This document shows, piece by piece, positions 2,632-54,701 of a stretch of DNA of 64,000 bases. A model generated the notes under the pieces. The model saw only the letters and a list, made by a program, of their open reading frames with translations, ran no database searches and had not been told where the DNA came from. Both the position numbers and the translations under genes were made by a program. Within the stretch, counting starts at the first letter, position 1. Each line of letters begins with the position of its first letter. Source of the DNA: a virus (lineage: Duplodnaviria > Caudoviricetes); IMG/VR virus record IMGVR_UViG_3300036770_005357. One strand, given 5' to 3'.

Positions 2632-2865
2632 ATGGCCTCGATGGAAAAAAATTCTGAAAGCAGTATCGGTGGAATATCGGTACGAGCAATTATTGTACTT
2701 TTTTTAATAGTAGTATTTGCAGTTGCTGTGTTTATGAAAATAACCAACGAGGCACTTAATAGTGTTGTTATGGCTGTTATCGGATGGTATTTTGGACAAA
2801 AAAGCAACGGAAATGGTAGTAAACCGGTTGAAACACAGGAATCTACACAATCATCTCCTCAATAA
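2632..2865 (+). CDS. small 2-TM membrane protein, holin-like
   Basis: 77 aa with two hydrophobic segments ending in VIGWYFG and a polar C-tail. TATTTATA lies 5 nt upstream. Confidence 0.5.
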   Translation: MASMEKNSESSIGGISVRAIIVLFLIVVFAVAVFMKITNEALNSVVMAVIGWYFGQKSNGNGSKPVETQESTQSSPQ

Positions 2866-8224: not shown

Positions 8225-10876
8225 TTAACTACTTCCCGAATTAATTTGTATTGATCCTACTAAAGCAGGATTTATTAAATTAAAGTTATTAAGTGTTACA
8301 TTTAAATAAGCTCTACCTGTATAAGCAGGTCCGGTATACCAGTTTAATGTCCATAAACTAGATGAATAGTATAAACTTCCGGATAAAAATCCGTGACGAA
8401 CTTGATGTCTGTGGCTACGATCGGTATAAGCAATTGCATTACTATTAACATAAACATTATATGGTATTGCATTACTACCGGAGTCATTTACATCAAAAGT
8501 ATACAAAACATACCTATCTATAAGATTGGAATATGAAGCATCTAAATCTAAAACTTCATATATACCATAATAAGCACTTGATGTAAATGGCGTAGCAAAT
8601 ACAAATATTTTACCATCTTCGGTGTTTAGTATGGTAGGACTGGCGGAATCGGCAAAAATTCTATTTTGCAGTCTTCTGATGTGTGATGAAACAGTAGGCA
8701 CTATAGATGATGTGCCATAATACATCATATATTGAAAATCAATATATGAAGCACTTAAAGAACTTGTTTGAAATCCATCTACAACTTGTAATCTATATGA
8801 TAAACTTGATGTAAGATTGTCACCTGTGGGATCATGAATGGTTGAAGGTATTGATTGTGGAGAAGTAGTCACATTTATATTACTTAAACCAGGAACATTT
8901 ACCCATTGTTCTTCGTCATTAACATCATATTGAACCGAATAAGTTTTTAAAGGAATATATGGGTTATTACTTTCTACTAAACCTGTTATGATACTTTTAA
9001 AATTTCCAGATTCTCTCTTTGTATAAGTCTCGGGATAACTAAATGCTGATGCTGATATTTGTAAATTAACTGTGGGAATTTGATAAACAGTGGGTGTTAT
9101 TTCTAATAATGCATATGATGATGCTCCCAAAGAATCGGAAACTGTATATCTGTAATTAAACGACTGTGAATTATAATTCGTATCGGTTAAAGTATGTGAA
9201 TATTGAAATGGTGTAACTGTTGTAGTAGATAAAACAGTCCAATCTCCCTCATCATTTCGTCTCCATTCTAAAGTTGCTGCAGCAATTTCAGCCTCGTATG
9301 AGTTTATAGTATAACTCATTTCTAAAAGATTATCAATAACTGTTTGATTAAATAACACTGCAGTAGAACTCGATAAGACTAATGTAGGAGCAATCGGTTC
9401 TCTTAAGGCTAATTCTATAACTTCCGCTACTGTTTTTCCTGTAGATGGAATCGTGTCTCCATTTATATATCTACCAAAAGATTTACTGGCGGATATAGAA
9501 ACTGATAAATCATTTGGAAAAACAAAAGAGTCTGACGAAGTACCACTTGTACCCGCAGATCCACTTCCTCCACCGGCCCAAGATATAGAATAAATTTTAT
9601 CCGTATTTAAAAATCCTGTACTGGTATAAACTGCGTTTACGGTTAAAGTAAAATAATATGAATTATCTACTATGCCCGATATTGTGTAAATGCCATTTAT
9701 CTGAGGATTGCCTAATTCAACTAATTGTAAAAAAACACCATTTAAATCGACGGACGATAAATTTAAAAGCCAATTATATACATTATTTGTATAAACATCA
9801 AATTTAGACAAATGTATCGTTTTTAAATCAGTCAGTATAGCATTATCTACTGAAAAATAACCTGCCCTAGCATCTGTAGATAAACCATAAAAATTCCATC
9901 TAATTGAATTTGCACCGTCATTTCCACTAATACCACTACTACCAGTTGTACCGCTTGTTCCGGTTGTACCACTTGAACCATCCACGCCGTTTTTTCCGGA
10001 AGTACCACTTGTTCCATCTAAACCACTTGTACCGGAGGATCCACTTGTTCCAGAATCACCATTAACACCGTTCAAACCACTTAATGTCCATGAAATCGAA
10101 TATATATTTTCCGGTGTAAAATCACCATTAGCTGATATAGATGTAACTGTTAAAACGAAATTACTGTTTTCTACATCATCAATTATGGAATCTATTAAGT
10201 AATAACCTAAAACGGAACTTGTATCATTTACATTTTCTTGAAAGATATCCTCTTCAGTCTGAATAGGTTGTACTTTTTTCCCCAGATCTTTTATTTGAAG
10301 AAACCCGATTCTGTTTTCTAAATTATTTTTTAAATAATTAAACCAATTCAATAAATCAATATTTCCAATTGAGTAATATGATATCGCTAATTGTGTTACA
10401 TTTTGTAAAATTAAGTCGTCAGCTACAAAAGTTTCAGGTTGCGTAATTGGATATGTACTATTTAGGTCATAATACCATCTAGAACTATTAGCTCCATCCA
10501 CGCCATCTACGCCGCTAGTACCATTTGTCCCCGGACTTGGGGCTGGAGAGGTGATTGTTATCCACTGTGTATCATAATCACCATCGCTTTTTTTTGCTAG
10601 GACTTGACCTTCTTCGCCGCCTATAGGCACTCCAATTCCGGATTCACCACTGGAACCGCTAGAACCGGTTTCTCCATTTGCACCACTTGTACCACTTGTA
10701 CCGGTAGCTACATTACATTCTATTTGTTTTTGTAGTTCGTCTATTATCTTTAAAAGATCATTAACACTTGTATCTCCTAAAGAAGTTCTTGCACGCTTAT
10801 AATTTAATATAGCGTTTTTAAGTACATCTGGATCTGGCGGACATGAATTGCCGTTACTGTTGTTACAATTTGCCAT
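8225..10876 (-). CDS. virion structural/fibre protein with GTSG repeats
   Basis: 883 aa with several SGTSG tracts and a duplicated NS.RW...Y..SWxxxG block. It lies directly downstream of the neck genes. Confidence 0.65.
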   Translation of the reverse strand: MANCNNSNGNSCPPDPDVLKNAILNYKRARTSLGDTSVNDLLKIIDELQKQIECNVATGTSGTSGANGETGSSGSSGESGIGVPIGGEEGQVLAKKSDGDYDTQWITITSPAPSPGTNGTSGVDGVDGANSSRWYYDLNSTYPITQPETFVADDLILQNVTQLAISYYSIGNIDLLNWFNYLKNNLENRIGFLQIKDLGKKVQPIQTEEDIFQENVNDTSSVLGYYLIDSIIDDVENSNFVLTVTSISANGDFTPENIYSISWTLSGLNGVNGDSGTSGSSGTSGLDGTSGTSGKNGVDGSSGTTGTSGTTGSSGISGNDGANSIRWNFYGLSTDARAGYFSVDNAILTDLKTIHLSKFDVYTNNVYNWLLNLSSVDLNGVFLQLVELGNPQINGIYTISGIVDNSYYFTLTVNAVYTSTGFLNTDKIYSISWAGGGSGSAGTSGTSSDSFVFPNDLSVSISASKSFGRYINGDTIPSTGKTVAEVIELALREPIAPTLVLSSSTAVLFNQTVIDNLLEMSYTINSYEAEIAAATLEWRRNDEGDWTVLSTTTVTPFQYSHTLTDTNYNSQSFNYRYTVSDSLGASSYALLEITPTVYQIPTVNLQISASAFSYPETYTKRESGNFKSIITGLVESNNPYIPLKTYSVQYDVNDEEQWVNVPGLSNINVTTSPQSIPSTIHDPTGDNLTSSLSYRLQVVDGFQTSSLSASYIDFQYMMYYGTSSIVPTVSSHIRRLQNRIFADSASPTILNTEDGKIFVFATPFTSSAYYGIYEVLDLDASYSNLIDRYVLYTFDVNDSGSNAIPYNVYVNSNAIAYTDRSHRHQVRHGFLSGSLYYSSSLWTLNWYTGPAYTGRAYLNVTLNNFNLINPALVGSIQINSGSS

Positions 10877-10917
10877 TTATTATAAATATAAAACAAATGA
10901 TAAGTATATTTTATATA

Positions 10918-12877: not shown

Positions 12878-14095
12878 TTATCCTATGTAAATGTGTAGTG
12901 GTACCTTAGAAAGCATCTTTTGCATTTCATCGCTTTCCTTACCTTTATTTTCTAATTGATTTACTCTCAAAGTTTTTTCAAGCATATCTCTTAGTTTCTC
13001 CAAAAGTGAATCTTTTTCTTCCTTAGCTTCTGCTCTTAATTCTGCACCATCCAATGTTACTTCGCCACCTGGAATTGGTACAGTACTATATTTTTGAAGA
13101 ATACGACCCAAAGTTTCTTTACAAAGTGCCAAGAAATATTTCTTAATCCATTGTTTACCGGCTTGATTTATCTTACAATATTGACAATATTCATAAGGTA
13201 CATCACTTGGATCGCTGATATATTCATAACGAGATCCACTCGTAAAGTTTGTAATATTCTTATCACTTTCAATATAATATTCAATCCAAATTCTTGTATT
13301 TTCAGTTGGAATTGGAAATAATCTCAATTGATTATTACCCAACATTTCAAATCCGAAATGACTCTTACGAACCATATCATTAAATTCAATTGCCTGTACC
13401 CTCTCTAAATCTTCAAATATAGGTGTCATCAAGAATTGAGTAGCCGGACTATAAGCACTGAATCCCATTTCTTGAAGTACATTGCTATAACTCATACCAG
13501 TCATACTAAATGGGTCGTATATACGAGCTATAGCTGGTGGTCTATAATGGAATATTCTACGAACTTCAATTCTAGAACCTGTCAAATGTAATTGATTTGC
13601 ACCGATAATTGTATTTAAATTATAAGTTTGTTGTGTGTTACTTAAACTAGCAGTAACATCAAAATAAGTTTTTTGTAATTGTACTTCGCCGCCTACAAGT
13701 GCTTCACTACCATATTGTTTACTTAATTGTACAACAAATGGTAATCCTGTACCTTTTACGCCTAAACCAGTTAAATTTTGATATTGATCTTGTGGTAAAC
13801 CTTGTACATTAATTAAATTATTAACAATATTAAATTCATTTATAACACGGTTGTATTCTAATACAGATTCTTCAAAACATGCGTAAAAATTGACATCAAT
13901 CATTTCAATGTCAACGATTGGATAACCTAAACGCTTAGCTGCCCACATGGCACTGCCACTACAATCATTTTCAAATGTACTTTCACCGGTATCACAATTT
14001 TCATTTAAATAATAGCCAAAAGGCACGCTTCCGGAAGTAACCATACTTCCGGATCCTGGCCATCTTACCCTATCTTGGTCTAAATTAGCACTCAT
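12878..14095 (-). CDS. gp13: neck protein / head-tail adaptor (T4 gp13-like)
   Basis: KRLGYPIVDIEM, WIKKYFLALCKETLG and PIPGGEVTLDG are typical gp13 motifs. Confidence 0.8.
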   Translation of the reverse strand: MSANLDQDRVRWPGSGSMVTSGSVPFGYYLNENCDTGESTFENDCSGSAMWAAKRLGYPIVDIEMIDVNFYACFEESVLEYNRVINEFNIVNNLINVQGLPQDQYQNLTGLGVKGTGLPFVVQLSKQYGSEALVGGEVQLQKTYFDVTASLSNTQQTYNLNTIIGANQLHLTGSRIEVRRIFHYRPPAIARIYDPFSMTGMSYSNVLQEMGFSAYSPATQFLMTPIFEDLERVQAIEFNDMVRKSHFGFEMLGNNQLRLFPIPTENTRIWIEYYIESDKNITNFTSGSRYEYISDPSDVPYEYCQYCKINQAGKQWIKKYFLALCKETLGRILQKYSTVPIPGGEVTLDGAELRAEAKEEKDSLLEKLRDMLEKTLRVNQLENKGKESDEMQKMLSKVPLHIYIG

Positions 14096-14099
14096 TAAT

Positions 14100-14107
14100 T
14101 ATAAATA
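14100..14107 (-). promoter_or_regulatory. TATTTATA putative late-promoter motif upstream of gp13-like gene (representative copy)
   Basis: Exact copies lie 4-5 nt before the ATG at 2619(+), 10881, 14100, 15284, 17427, 18392(+), 26712, 36075 and 54677. Confidence 0.6.
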
Positions 14108-14133: not shown

Positions 14134-15279
14134 TTAGTGTATTAATAGCCAAGTTCCTATTACATCTGCTCTATTTGCACTATCATCACCATCGCCGGGC
14201 TTTACAATAACATTCCATTTTGGTTCAGTACCAACCGGTATCTGCATCATTTCATCATATGTAACTACACTGTCTTCGGGCATATTATACTTGGCAGCTA
14301 ACTTCTTTCTAAGTATATCAAGTGCTTCCGGAGACTTAAATTGCATCTTATCATTTGGATCTCTAATTAATTTACCATCTTCATCTTTAAGAATGAGATC
14401 GTCAAACATTTGTTTAGGTACAACCGTACTATGTTTTGTTTTGGCAAAATCAATTTGTTTTTCTTGTTCAGGTGTGGCACCCGCACTAAAATTCATCTTA
14501 AAATTAGATGGTTTATCACCTTGAGCAACACTTGCTACCTTGGTATAAGCATAAAAATCAATATTTGGAAAATCTCTAGCAATACTATATGCTAAATTTA
14601 AATAATCCGGTGAAAAGAAATCTCCCGCGTCGTGCCATCTTACAACAACTTTTGTTCCTTTCTTACCAAATTTTTTCTCAGCAGCAGATAACTCCGCCTT
14701 TAATTTAGCTTTATATCCTTCCGGATCATTTAATAAGAAATTTAATTGTTTTGTTTGAGATAGTGAACTAGCTTTCCACTGTACATATCCACCCTTTTTA
14801 GCATAACAATATACCTTACACGCACCTGCGCCAGGACAAGTATCTACAACTACAAATTCGCCTGTACTTTCATTTACAGCTAATCCTTTCAAAGCAGGCA
14901 ATCCGATGTTAAAATAAACCGTACTACCACCACCGCTGTGAGTTATTTTTTCATTTTGTTTTAATATTTTTTCTGGACGAGCAGTTATTGCAGCTTTTAA
15001 TTTATCTAAATCAAATGTACGGTCAGCTTCATCTTTGATTTCAATATTGCCTCTATGTACATAAGGCATCTTATATTTATCTAACTTTTCCTTTTCTCCA
15101 GCGGCAGTTCTTTGCAAATAAGCTTGTAATTCACCCGGAGGCAAAATTCTTGTAGTAGCCCCTAACATTTCAGCTTCATCCAACTCTTGATCTACAAATT
15201 GACTAAGTGGAACAATTGAAGTGTCGGGCAATCCAAATTCATTTAATTGTGATTCTAATAAAATATCAATTAATTTCAT
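14134..15279 (-). CDS. GP88-like phage protein (Cys-cluster, putative Fe-S enzyme)
   Basis: TCPGAGACKVYCYA, VRWHDAGDF and FYAYTK motifs. N-terminal leader MKLIDILLE. Confidence 0.7.
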   Translation of the reverse strand: MKLIDILLESQLNEFGLPDTSIVPLSQFVDQELDEAEMLGATTRILPPGELQAYLQRTAAGEKEKLDKYKMPYVHRGNIEIKDEADRTFDLDKLKAAITARPEKILKQNEKITHSGGGSTVYFNIGLPALKGLAVNESTGEFVVVDTCPGAGACKVYCYAKKGGYVQWKASSLSQTKQLNFLLNDPEGYKAKLKAELSAAEKKFGKKGTKVVVRWHDAGDFFSPDYLNLAYSIARDFPNIDFYAYTKVASVAQGDKPSNFKMNFSAGATPEQEKQIDFAKTKHSTVVPKQMFDDLILKDEDGKLIRDPNDKMQFKSPEALDILRKKLAAKYNMPEDSVVTYDEMMQIPVGTEPKWNVIVKPGDGDDSANRADVIGTWLLIH

Positions 15280-15292
15280 ATATTATAAATAT

Positions 15293-16819: not shown

Positions 16820-17422
16820 TTACCAATATTTACCTCTCCCTTTATTACCTAAACTACGAATTCTGTGACTTCTGCAACTCCAATATCCAGCTGTTGTACG
16901 ATCTTTCTTTTGACTACATTTATGTCTAGCTGCAAAACTCTTACGACGAGCTTTACTACGACCTCTTACTCTTAAACCAGGATCGCCAAAAGTTACTTTC
17001 TTGATATTGCCACCTCTACTCTTTACATATACAGCATATTTCTTAGGACCGCCCGGAGTTCTAAATGGACGATTGAGTGTAACACTTTTACCGCGATGTT
17101 TAGCTTCCATTACTAAATCTTCTTCTACCTCAATAGGCGCATCCAAATATATTTCTCTACCTTCAACCATTACCTTTACACCCAAGTCACTTTCCACCAA
17201 TTCAGCGTCTGGATCACAAAGTTCAATCTTGTTTTCGTAATAAAGTTTGCGTACTTCATTAATCAATTCAAAATAAGATTCGCTGTATGTTCTAAAAATA
17301 TTCTCACTAAGTGGTATATTCTTTTGAAGATGGTATTTTAAATTGTCACTAATTTCCACTTCTCCTACTAATTCCATAGGACAAAGTATATCACTTTCAA
17401 GTAAATCTTTAAATTTAATCAT
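16820..17422 (-). CDS. conserved phage protein with acidic N-half and basic C-terminal domain; candidate internal head protein
   Basis: Leader MIKFKDLLE. C-terminus KKVTFGDP...RRKSFAARHKC...TAGYWSC, recognised as a recurrent uncultured-phage motif. Confidence 0.6.
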   Translation of the reverse strand: MIKFKDLLESDILCPMELVGEVEISDNLKYHLQKNIPLSENIFRTYSESYFELINEVRKLYYENKIELCDPDAELVESDLGVKVMVEGREIYLDAPIEVEEDLVMEAKHRGKSVTLNRPFRTPGGPKKYAVYVKSRGGNIKKVTFGDPGLRVRGRSKARRKSFAARHKCSQKKDRTTAGYWSCRSHRIRSLGNKGRGKYW

Positions 17423-17434
17423 ATAATATAAATA

Positions 17435-18364
17435 TTAATCGTATTGATTAACAAGTTTTAATTCACCTATTAATTTCTTATCGGAATCGTTTAGATTTTT
17501 ATCTAATTCTACTCGTAAATCCTTTAATGAATAATTAACTCCTGTTTTTGATTCAACATTTTTCAAATGTTCTATTGTATCCACTACACAATCCAATGTG
17601 TTTTTATATCGTGTAAATTCAAATGAAGATGTTAAATTACTAAAATCAACTGATTTAGGAGCAATACCCTTAATTAAAGATATAGCACCCGCTGCAATAT
17701 GTTCAAATATGCTAAATATAGCACCTGCTATAGGATTTGTGGCAGCTGCAAATCTTAGTACCAAGAACAATATCAAGAATATAAATATTCCGGTTATACC
17801 CAATGTAAAGAATCGTTTCAAACCATAAAATACACCGCCTAAACCCAAATAACTGTTAACTTCATCTACAGTAACTTGCAATCTATCAGCCTTTTTAGCG
17901 ACCTCGGTAGCTTGTATTTCCAAACCTTTTATTTGTTGTTCATACTTATCTTGTATCTCTTTTTGACGAACTCTTAAATCGGTTATTTCTTCATCTTTTA
18001 ATTTAAGAGTCTTTTTACCCTTTTCTCTTTCTTTCTCAATTTCACTATTTAATAAATCGGTTATCTCTTTAATCTTTTGTAAATCGTCTAAATTAGGATT
18101 GCCTGTAATAGTTAATATTCTTGTATTAAAATCCATAGCAGTCTTTACTTGTACAGGAGGATTTGTAATTTGAGAAAGTGAATAATCGGTACCAGCTGCT
18201 AATGTAGATATAGCTTCTAACTTTTCTTGATTATTTTGCGCGAATTCTGTACGAGTCGCTGCTATATTGTCTCTTGTTTTTTGAACTTTTTCTAAGTTGT
18301 TAGTTTTGCAACTTGTAAGAAAAACGAGTATAAATAGAAATAAAAAGATTCTCATATATATCAT
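17435..18364 (-). CDS. lipoprotein with coiled coil and C-proximal TM segment(s); unimolecular-spanin-like topology
   Basis: Lipobox FLTS-C, a ~150-aa helical/charged region, then the hydrophobic LGITGIFIFLILFLVLRFAAA. The start may be the second ATG at 18355. Confidence 0.55.
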   Translation of the reverse strand: MIYMRIFLFLFILVFLTSCKTNNLEKVQKTRDNIAATRTEFAQNNQEKLEAISTLAAGTDYSLSQITNPPVQVKTAMDFNTRILTITGNPNLDDLQKIKEITDLLNSEIEKEREKGKKTLKLKDEEITDLRVRQKEIQDKYEQQIKGLEIQATEVAKKADRLQVTVDEVNSYLGLGGVFYGLKRFFTLGITGIFIFLILFLVLRFAAATNPIAGAIFSIFEHIAAGAISLIKGIAPKSVDFSNLTSSFEFTRYKNTLDCVVDTIEHLKNVESKTGVNYSLKDLRVELDKNLNDSDKKLIGELKLVNQYD

Positions 18365-18391
18365 AAATATCGGTTTTTATATAAAAAATAA

Positions 18392-18399
18392 TATTTATA
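18392..18399 (+). promoter_or_regulatory. TATTTATA motif upstream of histidine kinase, back-to-back with TATTTATG of the lipoprotein gene
   Basis: Same motif and spacing as at structural genes, here on the plus strand. Confidence 0.55.
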
Positions 18400-18404
18400 T
18401 AATA

Positions 18405-19445
18405 ATGGAAAATATTGAGGAATTTACAATTAATAGTGAAGAATTATTAATAGAAACATCATTAATATCAAAAGCCGATAAATATGGAAGAATTACTTAC
18501 GCAAATCATACATTCTGTGATGTATCTGGTTATACCATTGATGAACTGATAGGATGTGATCATCGCGTCGTAAATAGCGGTGTACATAATAAGCAATATT
18601 GGCAAAATATGTACGCTACAGTCATTAAGGATAGAAAAATTTGGAACGGTACGGTAACTAATAAAAATAAAAATGGTGAACTTTATTTCGTAAAAAGTTG
18701 GATAAAGGGTATTTTTGATAAAAATAACAACTTTATTGGATATATATCTGTCAGACAAGATGTTACAGAAATCATTAAATCTAAAAACGAAATTGATAAA
18801 AAGAACGCATATCTTGAACATGCAGCTAAAATATTAAGACACGATATGCATAGTGGAATAAATACATACATACCAAGAGGTATAACTTCATTGGAAAGAA
18901 GATTATCTCCGGATTTAATTCAACAATATAAATTGGAATTTCCAATTAAGATATTGAGAGAAGGATTGTCACATACCCAAAAAGTTTATCGTGGTGTATA
19001 TGAATTCACTAATTTAGTAAAACAAGATTCTGAACTTACTAAATGTTTGTTTAATCTAAAAGATATTCTTATAGACTATTTAAAAACGACGGCTTATAAA
19101 GATCAAGTTCTAATATTAGATTTACCAACTATAGAAGTAAACGACGCTTTATTTTGTACAGCAATAGACAATCTAATTCGTAATGGTTTAAAATACAATG
19201 ACAGTGATACGAAATGTGTAAAGATCTACATGGAAAATGATTATCTTATAGTAGAAGATAATGGTAGAGGTATGGATTGTAGCGAATTTGATCATTTATC
19301 AAAACCATATACCCGTAAAGAAGGCCAAACAGAAAGTGGCAGTGGTTTGGGATTGAATATTTGTGTAGAAATTTTAAAGATACACGGCTTTTCCGTGAGT
19401 TGTGAAAAGTTACAATGTGGAACTAAACTCAAAATAAAATTATGA
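18405..19445 (+). CDS. PAS-domain sensor histidine kinase (cytoplasmic)
   Basis: Aer/NifL-type PAS (GRITYAN..FCDVSGY..ELIG..H). H-box LRHDM, N-box DNLIRNGLKY, G1 EDNGRGM, G2 GSGLGL. Start moved to ATG 18405, 5 nt after TATTTATA. Confidence 0.92.
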   Translation: MENIEEFTINSEELLIETSLISKADKYGRITYANHTFCDVSGYTIDELIGCDHRVVNSGVHNKQYWQNMYATVIKDRKIWNGTVTNKNKNGELYFVKSWIKGIFDKNNNFIGYISVRQDVTEIIKSKNEIDKKNAYLEHAAKILRHDMHSGINTYIPRGITSLERRLSPDLIQQYKLEFPIKILREGLSHTQKVYRGVYEFTNLVKQDSELTKCLFNLKDILIDYLKTTAYKDQVLILDLPTIEVNDALFCTAIDNLIRNGLKYNDSDTKCVKIYMENDYLIVEDNGRGMDCSEFDHLSKPYTRKEGQTESGSGLGLNICVEILKIHGFSVSCEKLQCGTKLKIKL

Positions 19446-19873
19446 TTGATTCTATATTATTAATTGATGACGAAAATTTATTTCATCTCGTATTTGAAGA
19501 TGCTTGTAGTCTATTGGATATTACATTGAGTCTTAAAACACTAAACAGTGCAGATGAAGCAGAAAGATATTTTAGATATTTAGTTGAAAATAATCAAAAG
19601 AAACCTGACTGTATATTTGTTGATTTGAATATCATCGGTTCAACATTTAATGGTATAGAATTAATAAGAAAAATTAATTTTGAGTATGGCGACGGAGTAG
19701 TTATTGGGATAATTTCATCAAGCAATGATAAGAACGAACAAGCAAAAGCAATGAAAGCTGGTGCTCAATTCTGGATTATTAAATCCGATGAAATTGAACC
19801 AAGACTCAAAGAATTCAAAAAAGACTTTGATGGGTTTTTAAAAAGAAAACTACCATTTAAAATTTATCAATGA
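19442..19873 (+). CDS. single-domain response regulator (CheY-like receiver)
   Basis: LLIDDE acidic pocket, phospho-acceptor FVDLN, IISSS and conserved K (WIIK). It overlaps the kinase stop (ATGA). Confidence 0.9.
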   Translation: MIDSILLIDDENLFHLVFEDACSLLDITLSLKTLNSADEAERYFRYLVENNQKKPDCIFVDLNIIGSTFNGIELIRKINFEYGDGVVIGIISSSNDKNEQAKAMKAGAQFWIIKSDEIEPRLKEFKKDFDGFLKRKLPFKIYQ

Positions 19874-20430
19874 TAAAATTAAACAATGAAACAAAGGAAA
19901 CACTAATACAGTTTTCCAAAGAAAAAGGCATTTATATTGAAGGAAATATATTAAAAACTATAGATGCCTCCGACGATCCTCAATTCGCCGAGTATATAAG
20001 ATTGTCTATAGAACGAGATAACGAAAAACGAATCAAACGACTTGATGTAACCAAACAGGTTCAAGAACAAAATGCTGAATTAATTAAATCTAAAGCAGAA
20101 AACGAAAAAATTAATATAGAATTAAAATTAGCTTTGGAAGAGGCTGAACGAGCAAAATTAAATGCATTAACCGACTTGGAAGTATTACAAAAGAAAACTC
20201 AATACGAACTTATAGGATCTATTGTTAAAATATCATTATGGATAATATGTGGTATAGGCATGGTAACTACGGGTATGTTTGCACTTTGTTTAGGTTTGGG
20301 TATAGATAATGAAATCGTACAAAATACTTGGAGTAATATGTTTGGTATACTTCTAACAAATTGTTTCAGTATCATAGGTACAATAATGGGTGTTAAATAT
20401 GCTTCTGAAAAAATTGATAAAAAAAGTTGA
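19870..20430 (+). CDS. coiled-coil protein with two C-terminal TM helices, third gene of the two-component operon
   Basis: ATGA overlap with the regulator, a heptad-rich middle region and two hydrophobic helices. Confidence 0.7.
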   Translation: MIKLNNETKETLIQFSKEKGIYIEGNILKTIDASDDPQFAEYIRLSIERDNEKRIKRLDVTKQVQEQNAELIKSKAENEKINIELKLALEEAERAKLNALTDLEVLQKKTQYELIGSIVKISLWIICGIGMVTTGMFALCLGLGIDNEIVQNTWSNMFGILLTNCFSIIGTIMGVKYASEKIDKKS

Positions 20431-20461
20431 ATTATTAAAATAAGCGTTTTACACTATATTA

Positions 20462-21235
20462 GTGTCTGAGTATTGTGATACATCATTAATTTATCTACAA
20501 AGTGTCAATAAGAATGTTGCAAAAACACTTATTGAAAAGAACCATTATACTCATAAATGGACACTGTGTACTGTAGCTTATGGCATATATTATAAAGACT
20601 ATATTGAAAGTAGTTTTTTTGGCGGTTATAATAGTAAATTAATAGGCGTATTGGTATATGGTCAGTCTGTAGGTAGAAGTGCCGGTACTAGTATAAGTCC
20701 ATTATTAAACAATGACAATGTAATGGAACTGACTCGTCTGTGGATTGAAGATGGTTACGGTAAGAATATAGAAAGTTATTGTATCGCTGAAAGTTTCAGA
20801 TTGTTAAATGTAGACTTTCCAAATATTAAATGTATATTAAGTTACGCAGATAATGAAGTGGGACATGCTGGTATAATATATCAAGCAGCTGGGTTTCTGT
20901 ATCAAGGTGACATTTATGTAGATCTGGCTAAAATGCCAAATTATAGTATTAGTTTATGTGGTCCTCCTAACTATGATTGGATACATAGTAGAAGTGTATT
21001 TTCACGATGGAAAAGTCATAATGTAGATAAACTAAAAGAAAGAATTGGTAAGACTTTTTGGCGTAAAAGAGAAAGTGGTAAACATCGTTATATCAAGTTT
21101 ATAAGCAACAAAATAGAAAACAAAAAACTAACTAAATCACTCAAACACAAAGTTAGACCATATCCAAAAAATACTTCGTTTGTAGAAGAAGTACAAGAAA
21201 TAACTGTTGAAGATAATAATAAATTTTTTAATTAA
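20462..21235 (+). CDS. Mom-like (GNAT-fold) DNA adenine-modification enzyme
   Basis: IEKNHY, MELTRLW, KNIESYCIA, ILSYAD..GH.G.IYQAAGFLY.G pattern of the Mom family. GTG start. Confidence 0.75.
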   Translation: MSEYCDTSLIYLQSVNKNVAKTLIEKNHYTHKWTLCTVAYGIYYKDYIESSFFGGYNSKLIGVLVYGQSVGRSAGTSISPLLNNDNVMELTRLWIEDGYGKNIESYCIAESFRLLNVDFPNIKCILSYADNEVGHAGIIYQAAGFLYQGDIYVDLAKMPNYSISLCGPPNYDWIHSRSVFSRWKSHNVDKLKERIGKTFWRKRESGKHRYIKFISNKIENKKLTKSLKHKVRPYPKNTSFVEEVQEITVEDNNKFFN

Positions 21236-21978
21236 AATTTCTTTTTATAACTTTTTATTGTTGTCATTGATACATCGTATTTTTCACTCAACTGTAATAT
21301 TGTAAATCTACCACTCTTTAAATCATCAACAAATTCATTTTTACGTAAAGCAAATTTACGCTTTTTCTCACTAATACGAAGCTTCATTTCATCACTCATT
21401 GCACCACGCTTTTTGCCTGTTATTTTGTTGTCATATTTATAATTTATTGTTCTGGAGGATAATTTCAGTCTTCTTTCTTCGTACATTCTACTTCCTAAAT
21501 CATTTCCATATTTTTCAATAAACCAATTTAAACTAAATCTACCTATAGCTTTTTGTTTTTGTTTTAATAAACTTTCATCATTATGTTTCTTGCCAAACAT
21601 AGGATTGTTTTCGCCTGAATATAATTCTGATAATTGTTGTCTTATATTCTCCTTATTAGGATTGTGTGTAAAATTATCACCGCCACACGAATTTTGCGCA
21701 ATATTATAACCTATACCATTTCTGTATGGTTCAAACATGTTTAAATAATGTTGTTCTCTTTCTAAAAGCAATTTGTCATCCATTATTTCTTCTACGATTT
21801 CAAATTTAAATTGATTTTCGCCATAAAAATTCCACGCATTTTGTAATTTTGCATTTATATGTGTTTTTTTATTTAAATCGTTTTTATGTTCCCACCACCG
21901 CCGATTAATGTCTTTTGATGATCCTATATAAAATTTGCCATTTCGCGTATTTGTTATTTTATAAATTCCCATTTTCAT
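21232..21978 (-). mobile_element. free-standing GIY-YIG homing endonuclease with NUMOD3-like motif
   Basis: GIYKITN...FYIGSS, RWWEH, GYN, NPMFGKKH. Inserted just downstream of the major capsid gene terminator. Confidence 0.88.
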
Positions 21979-22070: not shown

Positions 22071-23900
22071 TTATACTTGATCCAAGTCGGCAATAAGTAC
22101 TTTGCCGTAAAATTCTGGGCGGACTACCTTCTTAGCGTAGCGGGTCATTACGCCTCTACGTGGTGTGAAGTTAGTTGGATCATAGACCAATGGAGTTTGG
22201 ATAAGTGGGATGTATGGAGCATATACAGCACCGGTTTCGAGGAAGTTATTTCCGCGGAAACCAACCAATACAACATTGTCAGTCATATATGGGTTCTTGT
22301 AGACTTGGAAGCGACTTGCGAAGCTACCAACACGACTTACACCCATTGCGAACTTGGCTTGGTCACCGTCGGTGTTAACAACATATCCTGGAATTGATTC
22401 CAAGATGGTTGCTACATCTGGGCTTACGACCAAGAAGTTAGCACCACCACGGAGAGTCAATTTTTGGATTGTGTTAGAGACCTTTTGGATCTTGTTACCG
22501 AGGGTTTGGAACCATGTGCTCTTTACATAAGCGGTACGATTTGGAGAAGCATTTGAAATGCGGGTGAATGAAGCTTCACCGGTTGTTGCATTTGTGCTCT
22601 TTGTAAATTCAGTACCGATGGCAGCACTCCAAGCTTCTGTTGTTACGCCGGTTACAGCGTTGTTCAACATGTCAAGGATTTCAAGGTCAATTTCCATTGA
22701 TACATATTCACTCAAAAGAGCAGTAAGTTCTGCTTCTGCATCAATTGAATGATATGCATTCAAGTCTTGAGCCAATTCTGGAGTCCAGACAGCCTTTAAC
22801 TTACGAGTCTTAGCAACGATCGGTTCGCTGTTGAGCACCAAGTTGACTTCAGGAATACTGATGTCAGTGTCAATGCTTTGTGTAGCAGTTGCACTTGCGT
22901 TACCGGAACCTTCACCAGCTGTCTTACCAGCTTCGAAGTCGCCACGGAGGTTGTCGGTTGGTTGGAGTGTATATACCAACTTAACCTTATTAGAAGCACC
23001 ACCGAATGCGCTGTTTGAAGCGGAAACGATGTATACTGTTTGATAGAATGGATTTGAGTTACTACCAGTGTTCAATACTCTTGTATAAGTATTCAATACT
23101 AAACCACTGCTTGGCAATGATGTTGGAGAAACGGAAGCTGAGATCAAGTTGAATGAACGAGCTGCGTTCAAATCAATGTTCCAAGCATATCCGTTAGCTG
23201 CAATTGTATTTGATTGAGTATTGTCATCGTGATTCAAGATAACCTTAAACAACTTCTTAGCAACTACTGATGAACTCAATTCAGAAGCATATTGAACATC
23301 GTTCCATGACGCTGTTTGAATTGTGTTACCTGTAGATGTTCCTGAAGCATTCTTTGTCAAGGTAATTGCTGAACTTGTCAAAGCACGGCTTGAATAAGCA
23401 TAAGCGCCTTGACCATAAAGACCCTTAACAGCGTCATCAGTTGAACCTAATTTCTTACCGTTACCGCCGAATAAACTGTCATTCAATGCTTTACCGGCAC
23501 GGGTTGTTACGCTACTACCATTGTTCAAGTTACGAAGGTCTTGACCAGGAGCGGTTGTACCATACTTGAAATCTAAGTAGAAGATAAGACCGCTTGGGAG
23601 ATTCATTGGTTGAACACTAACGAATTCCTTAGCAGCGATTTCAGCAAATACACGACGGACCAATGGAAGAGCAACACCGGCCCATTGTTCTGAGCTTGTG
23701 CTGGTACCAGTTGTGGTTGCTTCGTCAAGCAATTGCTTAGCTTGGTTTTCTAAGAGAATAGACATGTGTGCCTTCTCAACGCCGTTTGTGCCTTCAAGAA
23801 GACCTGTCTTTTCCCACTTTTGTTGTAATCCACGGGTTTCAGCCATCAATTTGGCTTGTGGATTCATATTATTTGTTAATAATGATTTAATATCACTCAT
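22071..23900 (-). CDS. gp23: major capsid protein (T4 gp23-like) with S/T/N-rich insertion
   Basis: KWEKTGLLEG, VSVQPMNLPSGLIFYLDF, RKLKAVWTPELAQDL, YAPYIPL and RGVMTRYA motifs. Confidence 0.96.
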   Translation of the reverse strand: MSDIKSLLTNNMNPQAKLMAETRGLQQKWEKTGLLEGTNGVEKAHMSILLENQAKQLLDEATTTGTSTSSEQWAGVALPLVRRVFAEIAAKEFVSVQPMNLPSGLIFYLDFKYGTTAPGQDLRNLNNGSSVTTRAGKALNDSLFGGNGKKLGSTDDAVKGLYGQGAYAYSSRALTSSAITLTKNASGTSTGNTIQTASWNDVQYASELSSSVVAKKLFKVILNHDDNTQSNTIAANGYAWNIDLNAARSFNLISASVSPTSLPSSGLVLNTYTRVLNTGSNSNPFYQTVYIVSASNSAFGGASNKVKLVYTLQPTDNLRGDFEAGKTAGEGSGNASATATQSIDTDISIPEVNLVLNSEPIVAKTRKLKAVWTPELAQDLNAYHSIDAEAELTALLSEYVSMEIDLEILDMLNNAVTGVTTEAWSAAIGTEFTKSTNATTGEASFTRISNASPNRTAYVKSTWFQTLGNKIQKVSNTIQKLTLRGGANFLVVSPDVATILESIPGYVVNTDGDQAKFAMGVSRVGSFASRFQVYKNPYMTDNVVLVGFRGNNFLETGAVYAPYIPLIQTPLVYDPTNFTPRRGVMTRYAKKVVRPEFYGKVLIADLDQV

Positions 23901-26254: not shown

Positions 26255-26706
26255 GATTGTGTTGGAACATTAGGATTCAAACTAACACTACTTGGTTGTG
26301 CATGTGTTTGAAAAGATTGTGGAGCTTCACTCATTGGTGCTGTAATTTCAAAATATCTTTCTAATCTTACACCGATTTGTTCATAAAGCATTTCTAATTG
26401 ATGTTCAATTTCTTTAATCTTATGAGCTTCTTCGTATAACTTGGCAGCATCCTTCTTGATATCCTTCATATCACGTTCCACCATCTTAGCTTGCATCCAA
26501 TCGCCACATTCCTTGAGAGCATATCTTTCAGCTAAGTTAACAGCTTCCATAATCTTGTTAGCTGTTTCATACACAGATTCAGCCTTCAAGTTCTTACGGT
26601 ATTCGTTATATGATTTGATTGTCTCATACATCTTCTTCTTTTCGTAGATTGTAAGAGGATTATAAGCGTGTTCCGTGGAATTTTCTAATAAATGTTTTAA
26701 TTTCAT
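26251..26706 (-). CDS. hypothetical helical protein, candidate prohead core/internal protein
   Basis: Leader MKLKHLLE, TATTTATA upstream, adjacent to the protease gene. Confidence 0.6.
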   Translation of the reverse strand: MKLKHLLENSTEHAYNPLTIYEKKKMYETIKSYNEYRKNLKAESVYETANKIMEAVNLAERYALKECGDWMQAKMVERDMKDIKKDAAKLYEEAHKIKEIEHQLEMLYEQIGVRLERYFEITAPMSEAPQSFQTHAQPSSVSLNPNVPTQS

Positions 26707-26719
26707 ACTCTTATAAATA

Positions 26720-27322
26720 TTATAAATCTGAGAGAATGTTATGAATTATTCTTTCTACATTACTGTATGGATTAATTATTCTTGATTGTTCTACGCTTTC
26801 ATTTATCTTACCTTGTGGATACATAAAAGCACCTTGTGTAGAAGGATTGCTAACAAAGTCAAAGGCAATTAAATCAAAGTCATCTTGTACTACATCAGCA
26901 CCTTCACGCATATCTTTCTTAACACTACCTAAACCTCTACTAGATATGCCTAATAATATTCCCGAATTAAGAAGATCTCTTAAAATATTACCGCTCGGAG
27001 TTGGAAGAATTTCAACGGTACCTACCAAATCATCATTATCCCAACCCATATCAACAATATTATGACTTACATTCTTTAAATTAACAACGGATGATTCTGG
27101 ATGATCTAGTTCACCCATAGCTCTGCGTTGTTTTACAAAATTCTCCATGTACTTTTCAGCTTCTCTTTTGAGAATTTCTTTTGGATAAATTCTACCGTTT
27201 TGATTCTTAGCTTCTGCTCTTTGAAGTACGCCACTCACAATAAATTTACCATCTCGTGTGGATTCGTTTAGAGATGTTTTTTTGAATTCAAATGGTAATA
27301 CATCAATTAATACTTGTTTCAT
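26720..27322 (-). CDS. gp21: prohead core protease (T4 gp21-like)
   Basis: NQNGRIYP, GELDHP, GISSRGLGSV and FDFVSNPS motifs. Confidence 0.95.
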   Translation of the reverse strand: MKQVLIDVLPFEFKKTSLNESTRDGKFIVSGVLQRAEAKNQNGRIYPKEILKREAEKYMENFVKQRRAMGELDHPESSVVNLKNVSHNIVDMGWDNDDLVGTVEILPTPSGNILRDLLNSGILLGISSRGLGSVKKDMREGADVVQDDFDLIAFDFVSNPSTQGAFMYPQGKINESVEQSRIINPYSNVERIIHNILSDL

Positions 27323-35302: not shown

Positions 35303-36070
35303 TTATTTTAAGAATGTTTTTTCAAATACTGGTATTGCTTTTTTGTAAGATTTTTGAGTTTCATCACGATCGTCGTTTGTAAATTGCCAATTCCAAAACA
35401 ATTCGTCGGGAGTTTTAAATTTATAATATTCACCTAAAACTTTTTTTTGTGTATTTACAACTTCATTACCATTCCACTGTTGTCCTACCGCAATAAAGCC
35501 TGTTTCTATATTATTTACAATATTATTTTCTCCGAGTGTACTATGTCTATTTTCAATCCAAGTCAATCTTTCAATTAATTTTTGATAATAACCATTAGCT
35601 TGACCCCATCTTATACTTGCAAAGAAAACCACACAATCGCTTTCAAATAACTCTTTTGTAATTTTCCACAATTCATCACTTTTATTATTTAAACTTGCCC
35701 AACAACGGTGATAACCACTTGGGTTTTTAGAATCATCCTTCAACAAAGCACCCTTAACGCCACAGTGATTGTATCCATATTCTTTATTACTACTTACATT
35801 ACCTTCACATGGAAATATATTAAGTTTTGTTGTGTCAATTAAAGATACTTTTTCTTTACCTAAAAGTTCTTGTATCTTTATAGCTAACTGGCTACTTTTA
35901 GGCACATCATCTTTATGTTGAATCCATCTGTTACTTGTAGTGAGTAAAAGTACTTTATCTTTATTACGAAGATAATCTATGGTCTTTTTATACTTACGGG
36001 CATGATAATCCATATCTTGCTCGCTTTGAGGTAACTTCGCTTCAAGTAATAAATCTGAAAGACTAATCAT
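35303..36070 (-). CDS. flavodoxin-fold NAD(P)H-dependent FMN reductase / iron-sulfur flavoprotein-like
   Basis: VLLLTTSNR, LNIFPCEG..HC..RCW, ESDCVVFFASIRWG and YQKLIERL. Leader MISLSDLLLE. Confidence 0.75.
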   Translation of the reverse strand: MISLSDLLLEAKLPQSEQDMDYHARKYKKTIDYLRNKDKVLLLTTSNRWIQHKDDVPKSSQLAIKIQELLGKEKVSLIDTTKLNIFPCEGNVSSNKEYGYNHCGVKGALLKDDSKNPSGYHRCWASLNNKSDELWKITKELFESDCVVFFASIRWGQANGYYQKLIERLTWIENRHSTLGENNIVNNIETGFIAVGQQWNGNEVVNTQKKVLGEYYKFKTPDELFWNWQFTNDDRDETQKSYKKAIPVFEKTFLK

Positions 36071-36092
36071 TGTATATAAATATTCAAATTAT

Positions 36093-53976: not shown

Positions 53977-54671
53977 ATGCTGTTTTTAAGATAATAACTT
54001 AACCCATATTGACCATAACTAGTAACTAAAGATGTTGAATTTGAACTAAATTGGTAATAATCGACAAAATGACTACCTGTCAAAAATAAGTTATTGTTAC
54101 CGTCATCATAAATATCTGACAAAACATCACCCGTTTGATTAGTAATGACTACTGTATTTGGTCTAATAGTATCCCCTGCCTGATTTACAGCTAGTGAATA
54201 AAGAGAAAATTCATTGGCTAAATTTAATTTTTTGTTTTGTAAAACTGTATCGTTTAATCCAAATCTATTGTAGGCATTATTGTAATTATTATAATACATT
54301 TTATCGATGGTATTATATATTTGTCCTTTATATGTACCATTTATGTTTACAGGATTTGTTTCATTTGACCATTCAACACTACTCGAAGGATAAAAAATAG
54401 AACTAGAATTTAAATATTTACCTATATAAAAGTCTGGTATATCGTTTTGTATAAAATTTGTATCTGCCAAATATGCATTCGTAATTTTTATTGGTTCACA
54501 ACTTCCCGAAAAATTATTATTACATTGTAAAAATGGAACCGTTATTGGAAATGTAACATCATCACCGTCATTTCCAAAAATCAAGTCGAGAAAAATATTA
54601 TCAATTACTTGTGGTTTAGCTACCACAAATCTGGTTGTTAATACATCTTGTGTTTTAAAAAATTTAATCAT
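53973..54671 (-). CDS. putative baseplate/structural protein
   Basis: 232 aa, IRPNTVVI..DDGNNNL motif, within the baseplate cluster. Confidence 0.55.
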   Translation of the reverse strand: MIKFFKTQDVLTTRFVVAKPQVIDNIFLDLIFGNDGDDVTFPITVPFLQCNNNFSGSCEPIKITNAYLADTNFIQNDIPDFYIGKYLNSSSIFYPSSSVEWSNETNPVNINGTYKGQIYNTIDKMYYNNYNNAYNRFGLNDTVLQNKKLNLANEFSLYSLAVNQAGDTIRPNTVVITNQTGDVLSDIYDDGNNNLFLTGSHFVDYYQFSSNSTSLVTSYGQYGLSYYLKNSI

Positions 54672-54701
54672 CCTAATATAAATAGGAAGATTTATTATTA
54701 A

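Follow-up and report, generated by a model that had tools for sequence, protein, structure and literature searches.

A phage-specific kinase, receiver and membrane-hairpin cassette as a candidate for sensor-dependent control of lysis

The timing of lysis sets the burst size and the fitness of a phage, and its textbook control is the accumulation of the holin. In T4 lysis inhibition the antiholin RI binds the holin T, and in lambda the timing of lysis involves S107/S105. T4 lysis inhibition is, to our knowledge, the one known signal-responsive exception. In bacteria, the LytSR system of Firmicutes, which controls the holin/antiholin-like LrgAB/CidAB, is a two-component system tied to holin-like membrane proteins and to the energy state of the cell (background on lrgAB in PMC6997555), and a similar tie is proposed here for a phage. 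The DNA analysed is a stretch of 64,000 nucleotides (hereafter the window) of the virus record IMGVR_UViG_3300036770_005357, and the element in question is a set of three plus-strand genes, called the trio, which encode a sensor kinase, a response regulator consisting of a receiver domain, and a small membrane protein named TM3. An earlier note on this DNA had described the three genes as coupled through ATGA; the open reading frames (ORFs) are as it stated and both junctions are ATGA overlaps. The genes and their parts are listed below (aa, amino acids; TM, transmembrane).

18405-19445 (18405..19445), plus strand: soluble sensor histidine kinase of 346 aa, with the order PAS-DHp-CA
18405..18761, plus strand: PAS domain of the kinase, residues 1-119, of the MmoS PAS-A/Aer/NifL type, with pocket residues T18, H53, N86 and R117
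18765..19013, plus strand: divergent DHp helical hairpin of the kinase, residues 121-203, placed by model and conservation
19044..19439, plus strand: catalytic ATP-binding (CA) domain of the kinase, residues 214-345, with N, G1 and G2 boxes
19442-19873 (19442..19873), plus strand: receiver-only response regulator of 143 aa, with D9/D10, D61 (codon 19622-19624, GAT), S92, W111 and K114
19870-20430, plus strand: TM3
19870..20049, plus strand: N-terminal input region of TM3, residues 1-60, the proposed receiver-docking domain
20050..20205, plus strand: coiled-coil/signalling helix of TM3, residues 61-112, of variable length among relatives
20206..20430, plus strand: membrane hairpin of TM3, with TM1 at ~113-134, TM2 at ~157-176, a short acidic loop and a basic C-terminal tail

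The reading proposed here, to which a probability of about 0.4 is given, is a modular and phage-specific "sensor-gated lysis" in jumbo phages. One coiled-coil/hairpin effector, which would be a new class of regulated holin/antiholin, would take cytoplasmic or envelope input either from a fused GAF or PAS domain or from a two-component relay, that is, a flavin adenine dinucleotide (FAD)-PAS kinase in the window and membrane/periplasmic kinases in its relatives. The parts of this reading differ in strength. The trio is very likely a real and functional phage phosphorelay, and that its function is the control of lysis is put, from comparisons of sequence, at even odds or slightly better.

In the proposed mechanism, the kinase is a soluble PAS-DHp-CA protein whose PAS domain would hold FAD and report the redox or energy state of the infected cell. 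The kinase would autophosphorylate on His146 and pass the phosphate to Asp61 of the receiver which, being without an output domain, would act by binding the cytoplasmic N-terminal region of TM3. The coiled coil of TM3 would then relay the change to the C-terminal two-helix membrane hairpin. This hairpin would be a part of the lysis machinery (holin, antiholin or holin regulator), and the time of the burst would thus be tuned by the input to the kinase. Phosphotransfer, the contact of the receiver with TM3, late expression and the direction of the effect on lysis (delay or trigger) are steps that we infer.

TM3, its sensor fusions and the neighboring lysis genes

The receiver alignment was scanned against IMG/VR, and a receiver of this family is encoded in at least 545 viral contigs, many of them of 190-322 kb; gene order was examined in the best 80. 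TM3 follows the receiver in 80/80 of these loci and a kinase is located upstream in 74/80, with some loci carrying two kinases and a small secreted protein between them. Three of the carriers are 97-100% complete genomes of 291-322 kb. Since the flanking genes differ widely and the G+C content (GC) of the loci ranges from 28 to 66%, the trio must travel as one block between large phages whose hosts are varied.

The description of the third gene product as a coiled-coil protein with two TM helices agrees with both the structural model and the TM scan. In detail, the TM3 model (predicted local distance difference test, pLDDT, 83.6) consists of a small N-terminal domain, a single helix (37-143) which runs into TM1, and a TM2 helix (148-185). 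The hairpin is the most conserved part of the protein, especially TM2 (WSNMFGILLTNxFSIxGTIMGVKYA), and is followed by the C-terminal tail KYASEKIDKKS. As read from the sequence, charges are basic before TM1 and after TM2 and acidic in the loop, which fits a location of both termini in the cytoplasm. TM3 therefore has traits of holins and antiholins, that is, a small membrane protein with two TM helices and a charged C-terminal tail, whereas a cytoplasmic extension of ~110 aa is atypical for them. A ribbon-helix-helix or other DNA-binding N-terminal domain was considered and dropped, since the N-terminal strand of the model finds its pairing partner in its own chain and such a domain has no profile in its favor.

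An exhaustive hidden Markov model (HMM) search with a profile of the hairpin among 1.84 billion representatives returned a small, closed family of 109 representatives, in which the hairpin is always C-terminal. The family includes natural fusions in which a sensor precedes the coiled coil and the hairpin, namely GAF in P0377 (360 aa), PAS-PAS in P0411 (371 aa) and PAS in P0404 (251 aa). The fusions share TM3 from residue 60-70 on, with the sensors in place of TM3 residues 1 to ~60-70. This Rosetta-stone evidence is an indication that sensory input from the cytoplasm drives an output module made up of the coiled coil and the hairpin and, as it is the N-terminal domain that the sensors replace, that this domain is the entry point of the receiver signal. 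P0377 and P0411, the contigs of which were each seen in two samples, are located inside lysis cassettes with no kinase or receiver nearby. At locus L108 the order is fusion, a 78-aa two-TM protein, a 93-aa protein with an N-terminal TM, a 125-aa lipoprotein, a 77-aa protein, GH19 and a glucosaminidase; at L109 it is a 99-aa TM protein, fusion, a 150-aa lipoprotein, an 89-aa TM protein and a PG_binding_1+GH19 protein. The position of these kinase-less fusions in lysis cassettes suggests that the business of the TM3 module is lysis.

The earlier note had named the third gene as the probable membrane effector of the relay, and TM3 is the best candidate for that part: it always comes after the receiver, it occurs with sensors fused to it, and the two proteins co-diverge (p-distances of receiver and TM3, rho 0.72, against rho 0.37 for the kinase core and receiver). 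Prediction of a complex of the receiver with TM3(1-112) gave an ipSAE of 0.57, compared with 0.01 for the best control, which the tool's own calibration grades as "weak support". The calibration mark was reached by 58/80 solved complexes and 2/110 mismatched pairs, and at ipSAE <=0.60 by 7/80 solved complexes and by both passing mismatches. The runs share at least 96% of their contacts and the pLDDT of the partner is at least 85. It is thus likely that TM3 is the output of the relay.

Alternatively, the real targets of the receiver could be host proteins (kinases or regulators, motility or metabolic switches), with TM3 as an anchor, a scaffold or a phosphate drain. The receiver is the most conserved of the trio proteins (77% mean column identity, always ~143 aa), across loci of 28-66% GC, as would fit several binding partners; the one bacterial copy described below and the L002 contig keep a receiver without TM3; and single-domain receivers can serve as phosphate sinks or shuttles. 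This account is nevertheless improbable, because the hairpin with its coiled coil receives sensory input directly where GAF or PAS is fused to it, which is the behavior of an output and not of an anchor, because TM3 follows the receiver at every one of the best loci and diverges together with it, and because one conserved target is unlikely across hosts of such different GC.

With TM3 taken as the output of the relay, the neighboring genes bear on what that output does. They were clustered for 1,863 ORFs from 104 loci. The commonest neighbor of the trio, found at 33 loci, is a PG_binding_1+GH19 protein of 200-287 aa which matches PHROG 181 "endolysin" (E 1e-69). Its gene is located either directly after TM3, co-directional and at a distance of ~10 nt, or directly before the kinase in divergent orientation, and these positions recur in at least 10 flank contexts. 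The order of TM3 followed by GH19 is the classical holin-endolysin arrangement. A peptidoglycan hydrolase gene is directly adjacent to the trio in 21/75 dereplicated loci and within 8 kb in 28/75. In addition, L013-15 carry a GH108 gene in divergent orientation to the kinase, and at some loci the trio is flanked by an endolysin-like protein of PHROG 33083. Each of the three near-complete genomes has a single GH19 match, which adjoins the trio in two of them and is ~5 kb away in the other. Despite the relatedness of the loci, the two orientations and the many flank contexts argue for a maintained linkage of the trio with lysis genes, and TM3 is probably a lysis regulator of the holin or antiholin class.

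Several findings weigh against this assignment. No endolysin was found in the window or in the whole 105-kb record, which is 36% complete, with GH19 and GH108 queries and with Pfam searches of ten unassigned ORFs; a recognised lysis gene is missing within 8 kb at about 60% of the dereplicated loci; and, as the loci are related, the neighbor counts are not independent events. TM3 and 30 members of its family matched no Pfam or PHROG family, giving coiled-coil noise only and no holin, and the XhlA profile had no match among the 30 members at E<=0.05. In a Foldseek search of the TM3 model against viral structures, one uncharacterised homologue was returned and no fold match of known function. The weak grade of the predicted receiver complex belongs to the same list. 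At L108, finally, the place where a holin would classically be expected is taken by the separate 78-aa two-TM protein, which is a better candidate for the hole-former than TM3. It is related to a cluster of proteins found near the trio in 12 dereplicated loci. Because of this second protein at the holin place, TM3 may be an antiholin or a regulator and not the hole-former itself.

Two further searches add little to either side. Phage_holin_T had no match in the record of the window or in the records of four relatives, but the control genomes were also silent, so this result is uninformative. Feature and structure searches of the Atlas with TM3 returned its own viral clusters only.

The same relay could also operate with a TM3 that does not control lysis and instead modulates ion conduction or membrane potential, excludes superinfecting phages or remodels the envelope; in that case the trio would be near lysis genes only because late or membrane-protein genes are clustered together. 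The loci without an endolysin beside the cassette, the window included, and the missing holin match agree with this view, as do a hairpin which is far more conserved than usual for holins and rich in polar N, T, S and G, and the availability of other small TM proteins as holins in L108 and L109. It is still rather unlikely, in view of the endolysin adjacency in two orientations and at least 10 flank contexts, the endolysin at <6 kb from the cassette in 3/3 near-complete genomes of ~300 kb, and the kinase-less fusion variants which are also inside lysis cassettes. Control of lysis through TM3 is the preferred account.

For the window itself, the link to lysis would come from its relatives and from a neighboring gene of unproven function, which encodes a lipoprotein with TM character, and this too is a weakness of the account.

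17435..18364, minus strand: lipoprotein of 309 aa with lipobox LTSC, a helical middle and TM segment(s), hydrophobic at ~168-235

This protein is the only neighbor of the trio in the window with a lysis-like character, and it has no Pfam or PHROG family. Its gene is divergent from the kinase in the window and in L008, and in L016 and L017 it is directly upstream of the kinase, co-directional and overlapped with it at start and stop. Its presence beside the kinase in two arrangements links it to the trio. The topology of the protein may be spanin-like.

Sensor, kinase and receiver

The kinase had been described as a soluble PAS-HisKA-HATPase protein with its catalytic boxes intact, and most of this description stands. 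Pfam recognises PAS_9 (E 1.5e-10; residues 24-122) and HATPase_c (E 1.8e-12; residues 251-345), and a hydropathy scan found no TM segment in the protein. The part that does not stand in its original form is HisKA. Pfam HisKA gave no match to the kinase, even at E<=10 on residues 120-250, a result which tells against the proposed relay; the region is probably a divergent DHp on which the profile is silent. The AlphaFold model, built with 37 homologues (pLDDT 84), shows the PAS domain at 1-119, a helix at 121-166, a return helix at 178-203 and an alpha/beta CA domain at 214-345. The top Foldseek matches of the full-length model are soluble PAS/LOV-DHp-CA kinases, that is, YF1, FixL chimeras, VicK and NifL, and the nearest sequences of the CA domain in the PDB are QseC and HK853.

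Conservation across the 37 homologues follows the catalytic elements. The stretch YLEHAAKILRHDMHSGINTY of the first DHp helix, which contains His146-Asp147, is invariant or nearly so, and the same is true of the N box DNLIRNGLKYND, G1 (DNGRG) and G2 (GxGLGLN). The H-box of the kinase reads LRHDMHSGIN, without variation in the phage family. Conservation extends to His139 and His149, besides the invariant His146-Asp147; the acidic residue at +1 makes His146-Asp147 the likeliest pair, and His146 (codon 18840-18842, CAC) is the probable phospho-acceptor.

The sensor had been called an Aer-like PAS of the FAD/redox type. This is right in kind, but "MmoS PAS-A-like" is the more exact name. By sequence, the PDB entry nearest to the domain is MmoS PAS-A, 3EWK (domain E 2.7e-21); Aer 8DIK (E 2e-15) and NifL PAS1 2GJ3 (E 3.4e-9) come after it. 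In Foldseek, the PAS model superposes on 3EWK with a root-mean-square deviation of 1.2 A over 119 columns at 39% identity. The flavin-pocket residues T18/H53/N85/R115 of Aer correspond to T103/H132/N164/R195 of MmoS (PMC9668731). In HMMER alignments these positions fall on T18, H53, N86 and R117 of the phage protein, where all four residues are kept. Of the four, H53 does not vary across the 37 homologues and N86 and R117 reach a conservation of at least 90%, while conservation is lacking for T18. The stretch DHRxVNSGxH is common to the phage PAS and MmoS and is not found in Aer, hence the preferred name.

The input may of course be of another nature, with a PAS domain that has a different ligand or none and serves mainly as a dimerisation or relay domain; such an input would fit any reading of the output. 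Cofactor binding is not provable from sequence, and the inputs of the relatives vary, with one to three PAS, GAF, N-terminal TM pairs or periplasmic domains. Moreover, the PAS of L004 is without the DHxxVNSGxH stretch, R57, H58 and D60 of Aer are not conserved in the phage PAS (NS-V, as in MmoS), and the equivalent of Aer T18 is not conserved in the family. On the contrary, identity to the FAD-bound MmoS PAS-A is 39-47%, H53, N86 and R117 are conserved in the family, and the kinase of the window has the complete pocket. A non-flavin input is thus unlikely, and the PAS domain quite probably binds FAD and reads redox.

Two observations concern the inputs of the family. In relatives L041, L058, L078 (e.g., L078:4184-7996) and others, two kinases precede the receiver: one has two N-terminal TM helices and the other a signal peptide/TM, a probably periplasmic domain of ~200 aa and a second TM, with a secreted protein of 200 aa encoded between them. 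With such TM and periplasmic-type domains, the family appears to take envelope or periplasmic inputs too. In 13 loci, including L005-L007 (e.g., L007:6414-7064), L041 and L017, a 217-aa protein which matches PHROG 3704 "ferredoxin" (E 9e-42), without a Pfam match, is encoded a few genes from the trio. That a redox protein is encoded so close to a putative redox sensor is perhaps not due to chance alone.

The receiver matches Pfam Response_reg (E 4.3e-10) and has no other domain, so that the HMM searches proposed for the trio returned PAS (as PAS_9), HATPase_c and Response_reg, HisKA being the one without a match. The claim of a receiver-only regulator with an intact DD/D/S/K set is borne out: D9, D10, D61, S92 and K114 are invariant in 21 sequences and have CheY-like spacing. 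The aromatic residue W111 is located at K minus 3, and a C-terminal extension of 29 residues (115-143) is conserved.

Distribution, genomic setting and the motif before the kinase

All Atlas clusters for TM3 are viral (100%). Among 50,697 GenBank phage records, tblastn with the receiver and TM3 found none, and the kinase gave generic PAS matches (to Aer) only. In prokaryotes (one genome per species, 185,579 species, searched with two DHp words), eight loci were found, all on contigs of metagenome-assembled genomes (MAGs), and most of these have a full trio with phage-like or unknown neighbors. The sole clearly chromosomal locus, L024, is on a 967-kb Bacteroidota contig and consists of a multi-PAS kinase (apparently in two ORFs) and a receiver, with no TM3. 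Its neighbors are sulfur-oxidation genes (TauE, sulfur-transport and a SoxA/TsdA cytochrome). Since no second match turned up in the 201 genomes searched from its order, it looks acquired from a phage. On a contig of 89 kb and 49% GC that was binned as a Bdellovibrionota MAG, PrkA and SpoVR genes (L020:7833-10979) are located right after the trio.

The earlier note held the module to be domesticated by the phage and not recently captured, and named as the contrary outcome best matches to contiguous bacterial chromosomal loci with no phage triad. The domesticated reading is strongly supported: the cassette is specific to phages, with at least 545 viral contigs, and almost absent from bacterial genomes. 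The three-gene order, conservation of which it had asked about in phages versus bacteria, is kept in the former (receiver and TM3 in 80/80), while the one clearly chromosomal copy is without TM3.

A motif had been said to precede both the operon and the structural genes, and this holds as well.

18392..18399, plus strand: TATTTATA motif before the kinase, 5 nt upstream of its ATG

TATTTATA-N4-5-ATG occurs at 10 sites in the window, compared with 0.75 expected, and none of 100 shuffles reached 10; examples of the sites are 10874-10888, 14093-14107, 15277-15291, 17420-17434, 26704-26719, 36068-36082 and 54669-54684. All but one of the ten coincide with called gene starts, among them that of the kinase (18392-18407) and several in the virion region. 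In gene orientation the form is (A)TATTTATA, 4-5 nt before ATG, for genes on both strands, and in the close relative L008 TATTTATA likewise precedes the kinase. A strand error, TATTTATA being the reverse complement of the T4 late promoter TATAAATA, was considered and rejected: the motif in gene orientation is TATTTATA at -12/-13 on both strands. TATTTATA is a probable phage promoter or start-proximal element, and as a mark of late transcription it may be taken as a hint, a reasonable guess and nothing more. If it is a promoter, its spacing to the ATG is so short that transcripts would be leaderless or nearly so. A scan of 18200-21400 for sigma-70 promoters and terminators gave sites no more numerous than in shuffles. 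Another gene with TATTTATA upstream (2632-2865, plus strand) encodes a 77-aa protein with a long hydrophobic stretch, possibly a small lysis or membrane protein, which resembles the 78-88-aa two-TM family near the trio in relatives weakly (24% identity).

The source record is a 105.5-kb IMG/VR virus contig with a CheckV completeness of 36%, of which the window is the minus strand of C1:41544-105543. The phage is a distant T4-like phage; by its capsid protein it is closest to Flavobacterium phage immuto, at 58% identity, and then to Microcystis phage Mel-JY01, at 49%. The location of the module inside the virion gene region, as previously noted, is evident from its neighbors, which are a beta-helix protein, a GP88-family protein and the products of the two genes listed here.

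22071-23900: Gp23-family major capsid protein (Pfam)
26720-27322: prohead protease

Nearly all genes of the window are on the minus strand, and the trio together with a Mom-like gene forms a plus-strand island at 18405-21235, the GC of which is slightly below that of its surroundings (28.5% vs ~32%). These features, together with a GIY-YIG homing endonuclease gene that adjoins the island, would suit a module that is recently captured bacterial cargo (a moron) without a phage-specific role. Such an origin is nonetheless highly improbable, given the gene order conserved in hundreds of viral contigs, the near-absence from prokaryote genomes, the presence of the phage's own start-proximal motif and the intactness of all catalytic residues. 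The trio is better regarded as a phage cassette.

The Mom-family gene (20462-21235, plus strand, GTG start; Pfam Mom, E 2.8e-42) starts 31 nt past TM3. The GIY-YIG/NUMOD3 homing endonuclease gene (21232-21978, minus strand) converges with it, and their ends overlap. Among the relatives, only the closest (L008/L009) have these two genes next to the trio, so they are outside the conserved cassette. DNA near-identical to 17400-21300 (at least half of the sampled words) occurs in subsurface, marine, riverine and aquatic metagenome runs from at least four studies.

Comparison with known systems

Full-text searches of the literature found no paper describing the trio cassette. New here are the sensor-hairpin fusions, the mapping of the pocket residues, the endolysin adjacency and the variant of the window beside the lipoprotein gene. 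If the proposal is true, a widespread phage phosphorelay acting on a lysis membrane protein would be a second and far more general way to read the host before bursting it, with interchangeable sensors on the relay (flavin/redox PAS, GAF and periplasmic domains), and the moment of the burst would be a computed decision and not a fixed clock. The trio would then be among the first complete two-component systems with a natural function in viruses. It offers a compact, three-part and post-translational switch from sensor to membrane, and a testable handle on how environmental redox, as in oxic and anoxic water columns, shapes viral lysis in nature.

The kinase shares the order of sensor PAS, signalling helix, DHp hairpin and CA with YF1 (4GCZ), FixL-derived chimeras (8A3U/8A7H), VicK (4I5S) and ThkA-TrrA (3A0R), and differs from this class in a DHp sequence which is not matched by Pfam HisKA. 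Similarly, MmoS PAS-A of Methylococcus capsulatus, Aer and NifL PAS1 are FAD-binding, redox-sensing PAS domains which share fold and pocket residues with the phage domain. The latter, however, is single and within a soluble kinase of 346 aa, whereas the other three belong to a large bacterial sensor of many domains (MmoS), a membrane chemoreceptor (Aer) and an anti-activator (NifL).

Receivers that act by protein contact, such as those of CheY-FliM, DivK, Spo0F and the Rcp1 type, have the complete D-D-D-S-K set and the aromatic switch residue, as does the phage receiver. Unlike them, the phage receiver is encoded by a virus, has the conserved C-terminal extension of 29 residues, and has as its proposed partner a dedicated membrane-hairpin protein from the overlapping next gene.

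At the level of function, LytSR is perhaps the nearest analogue of the trio and T4 lysis inhibition the nearest viral one, neither being related to it in sequence. LytR is a DNA-binding transcriptional regulator in a bacterium, whereas the phage receiver is without a DNA-binding domain and its control would be post-translational. In T4 RI/T and lambda S107/S105, the state of a phage membrane protein sets the time of hole formation, beside the endolysin gene, and the trio is placed likewise in relatives of the window. No similarity of the trio to those systems in sequence or profile was found, and its input would come from a phosphorelay or a fused cytoplasmic PAS or GAF domain and not from a periplasmic domain. 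The parts of the trio thus seem canonical (an MmoS/Aer-type PAS, a class I kinase core and a CheY-like receiver), but their wiring does not: the membrane output of this two-component system would be new and specific to phages.

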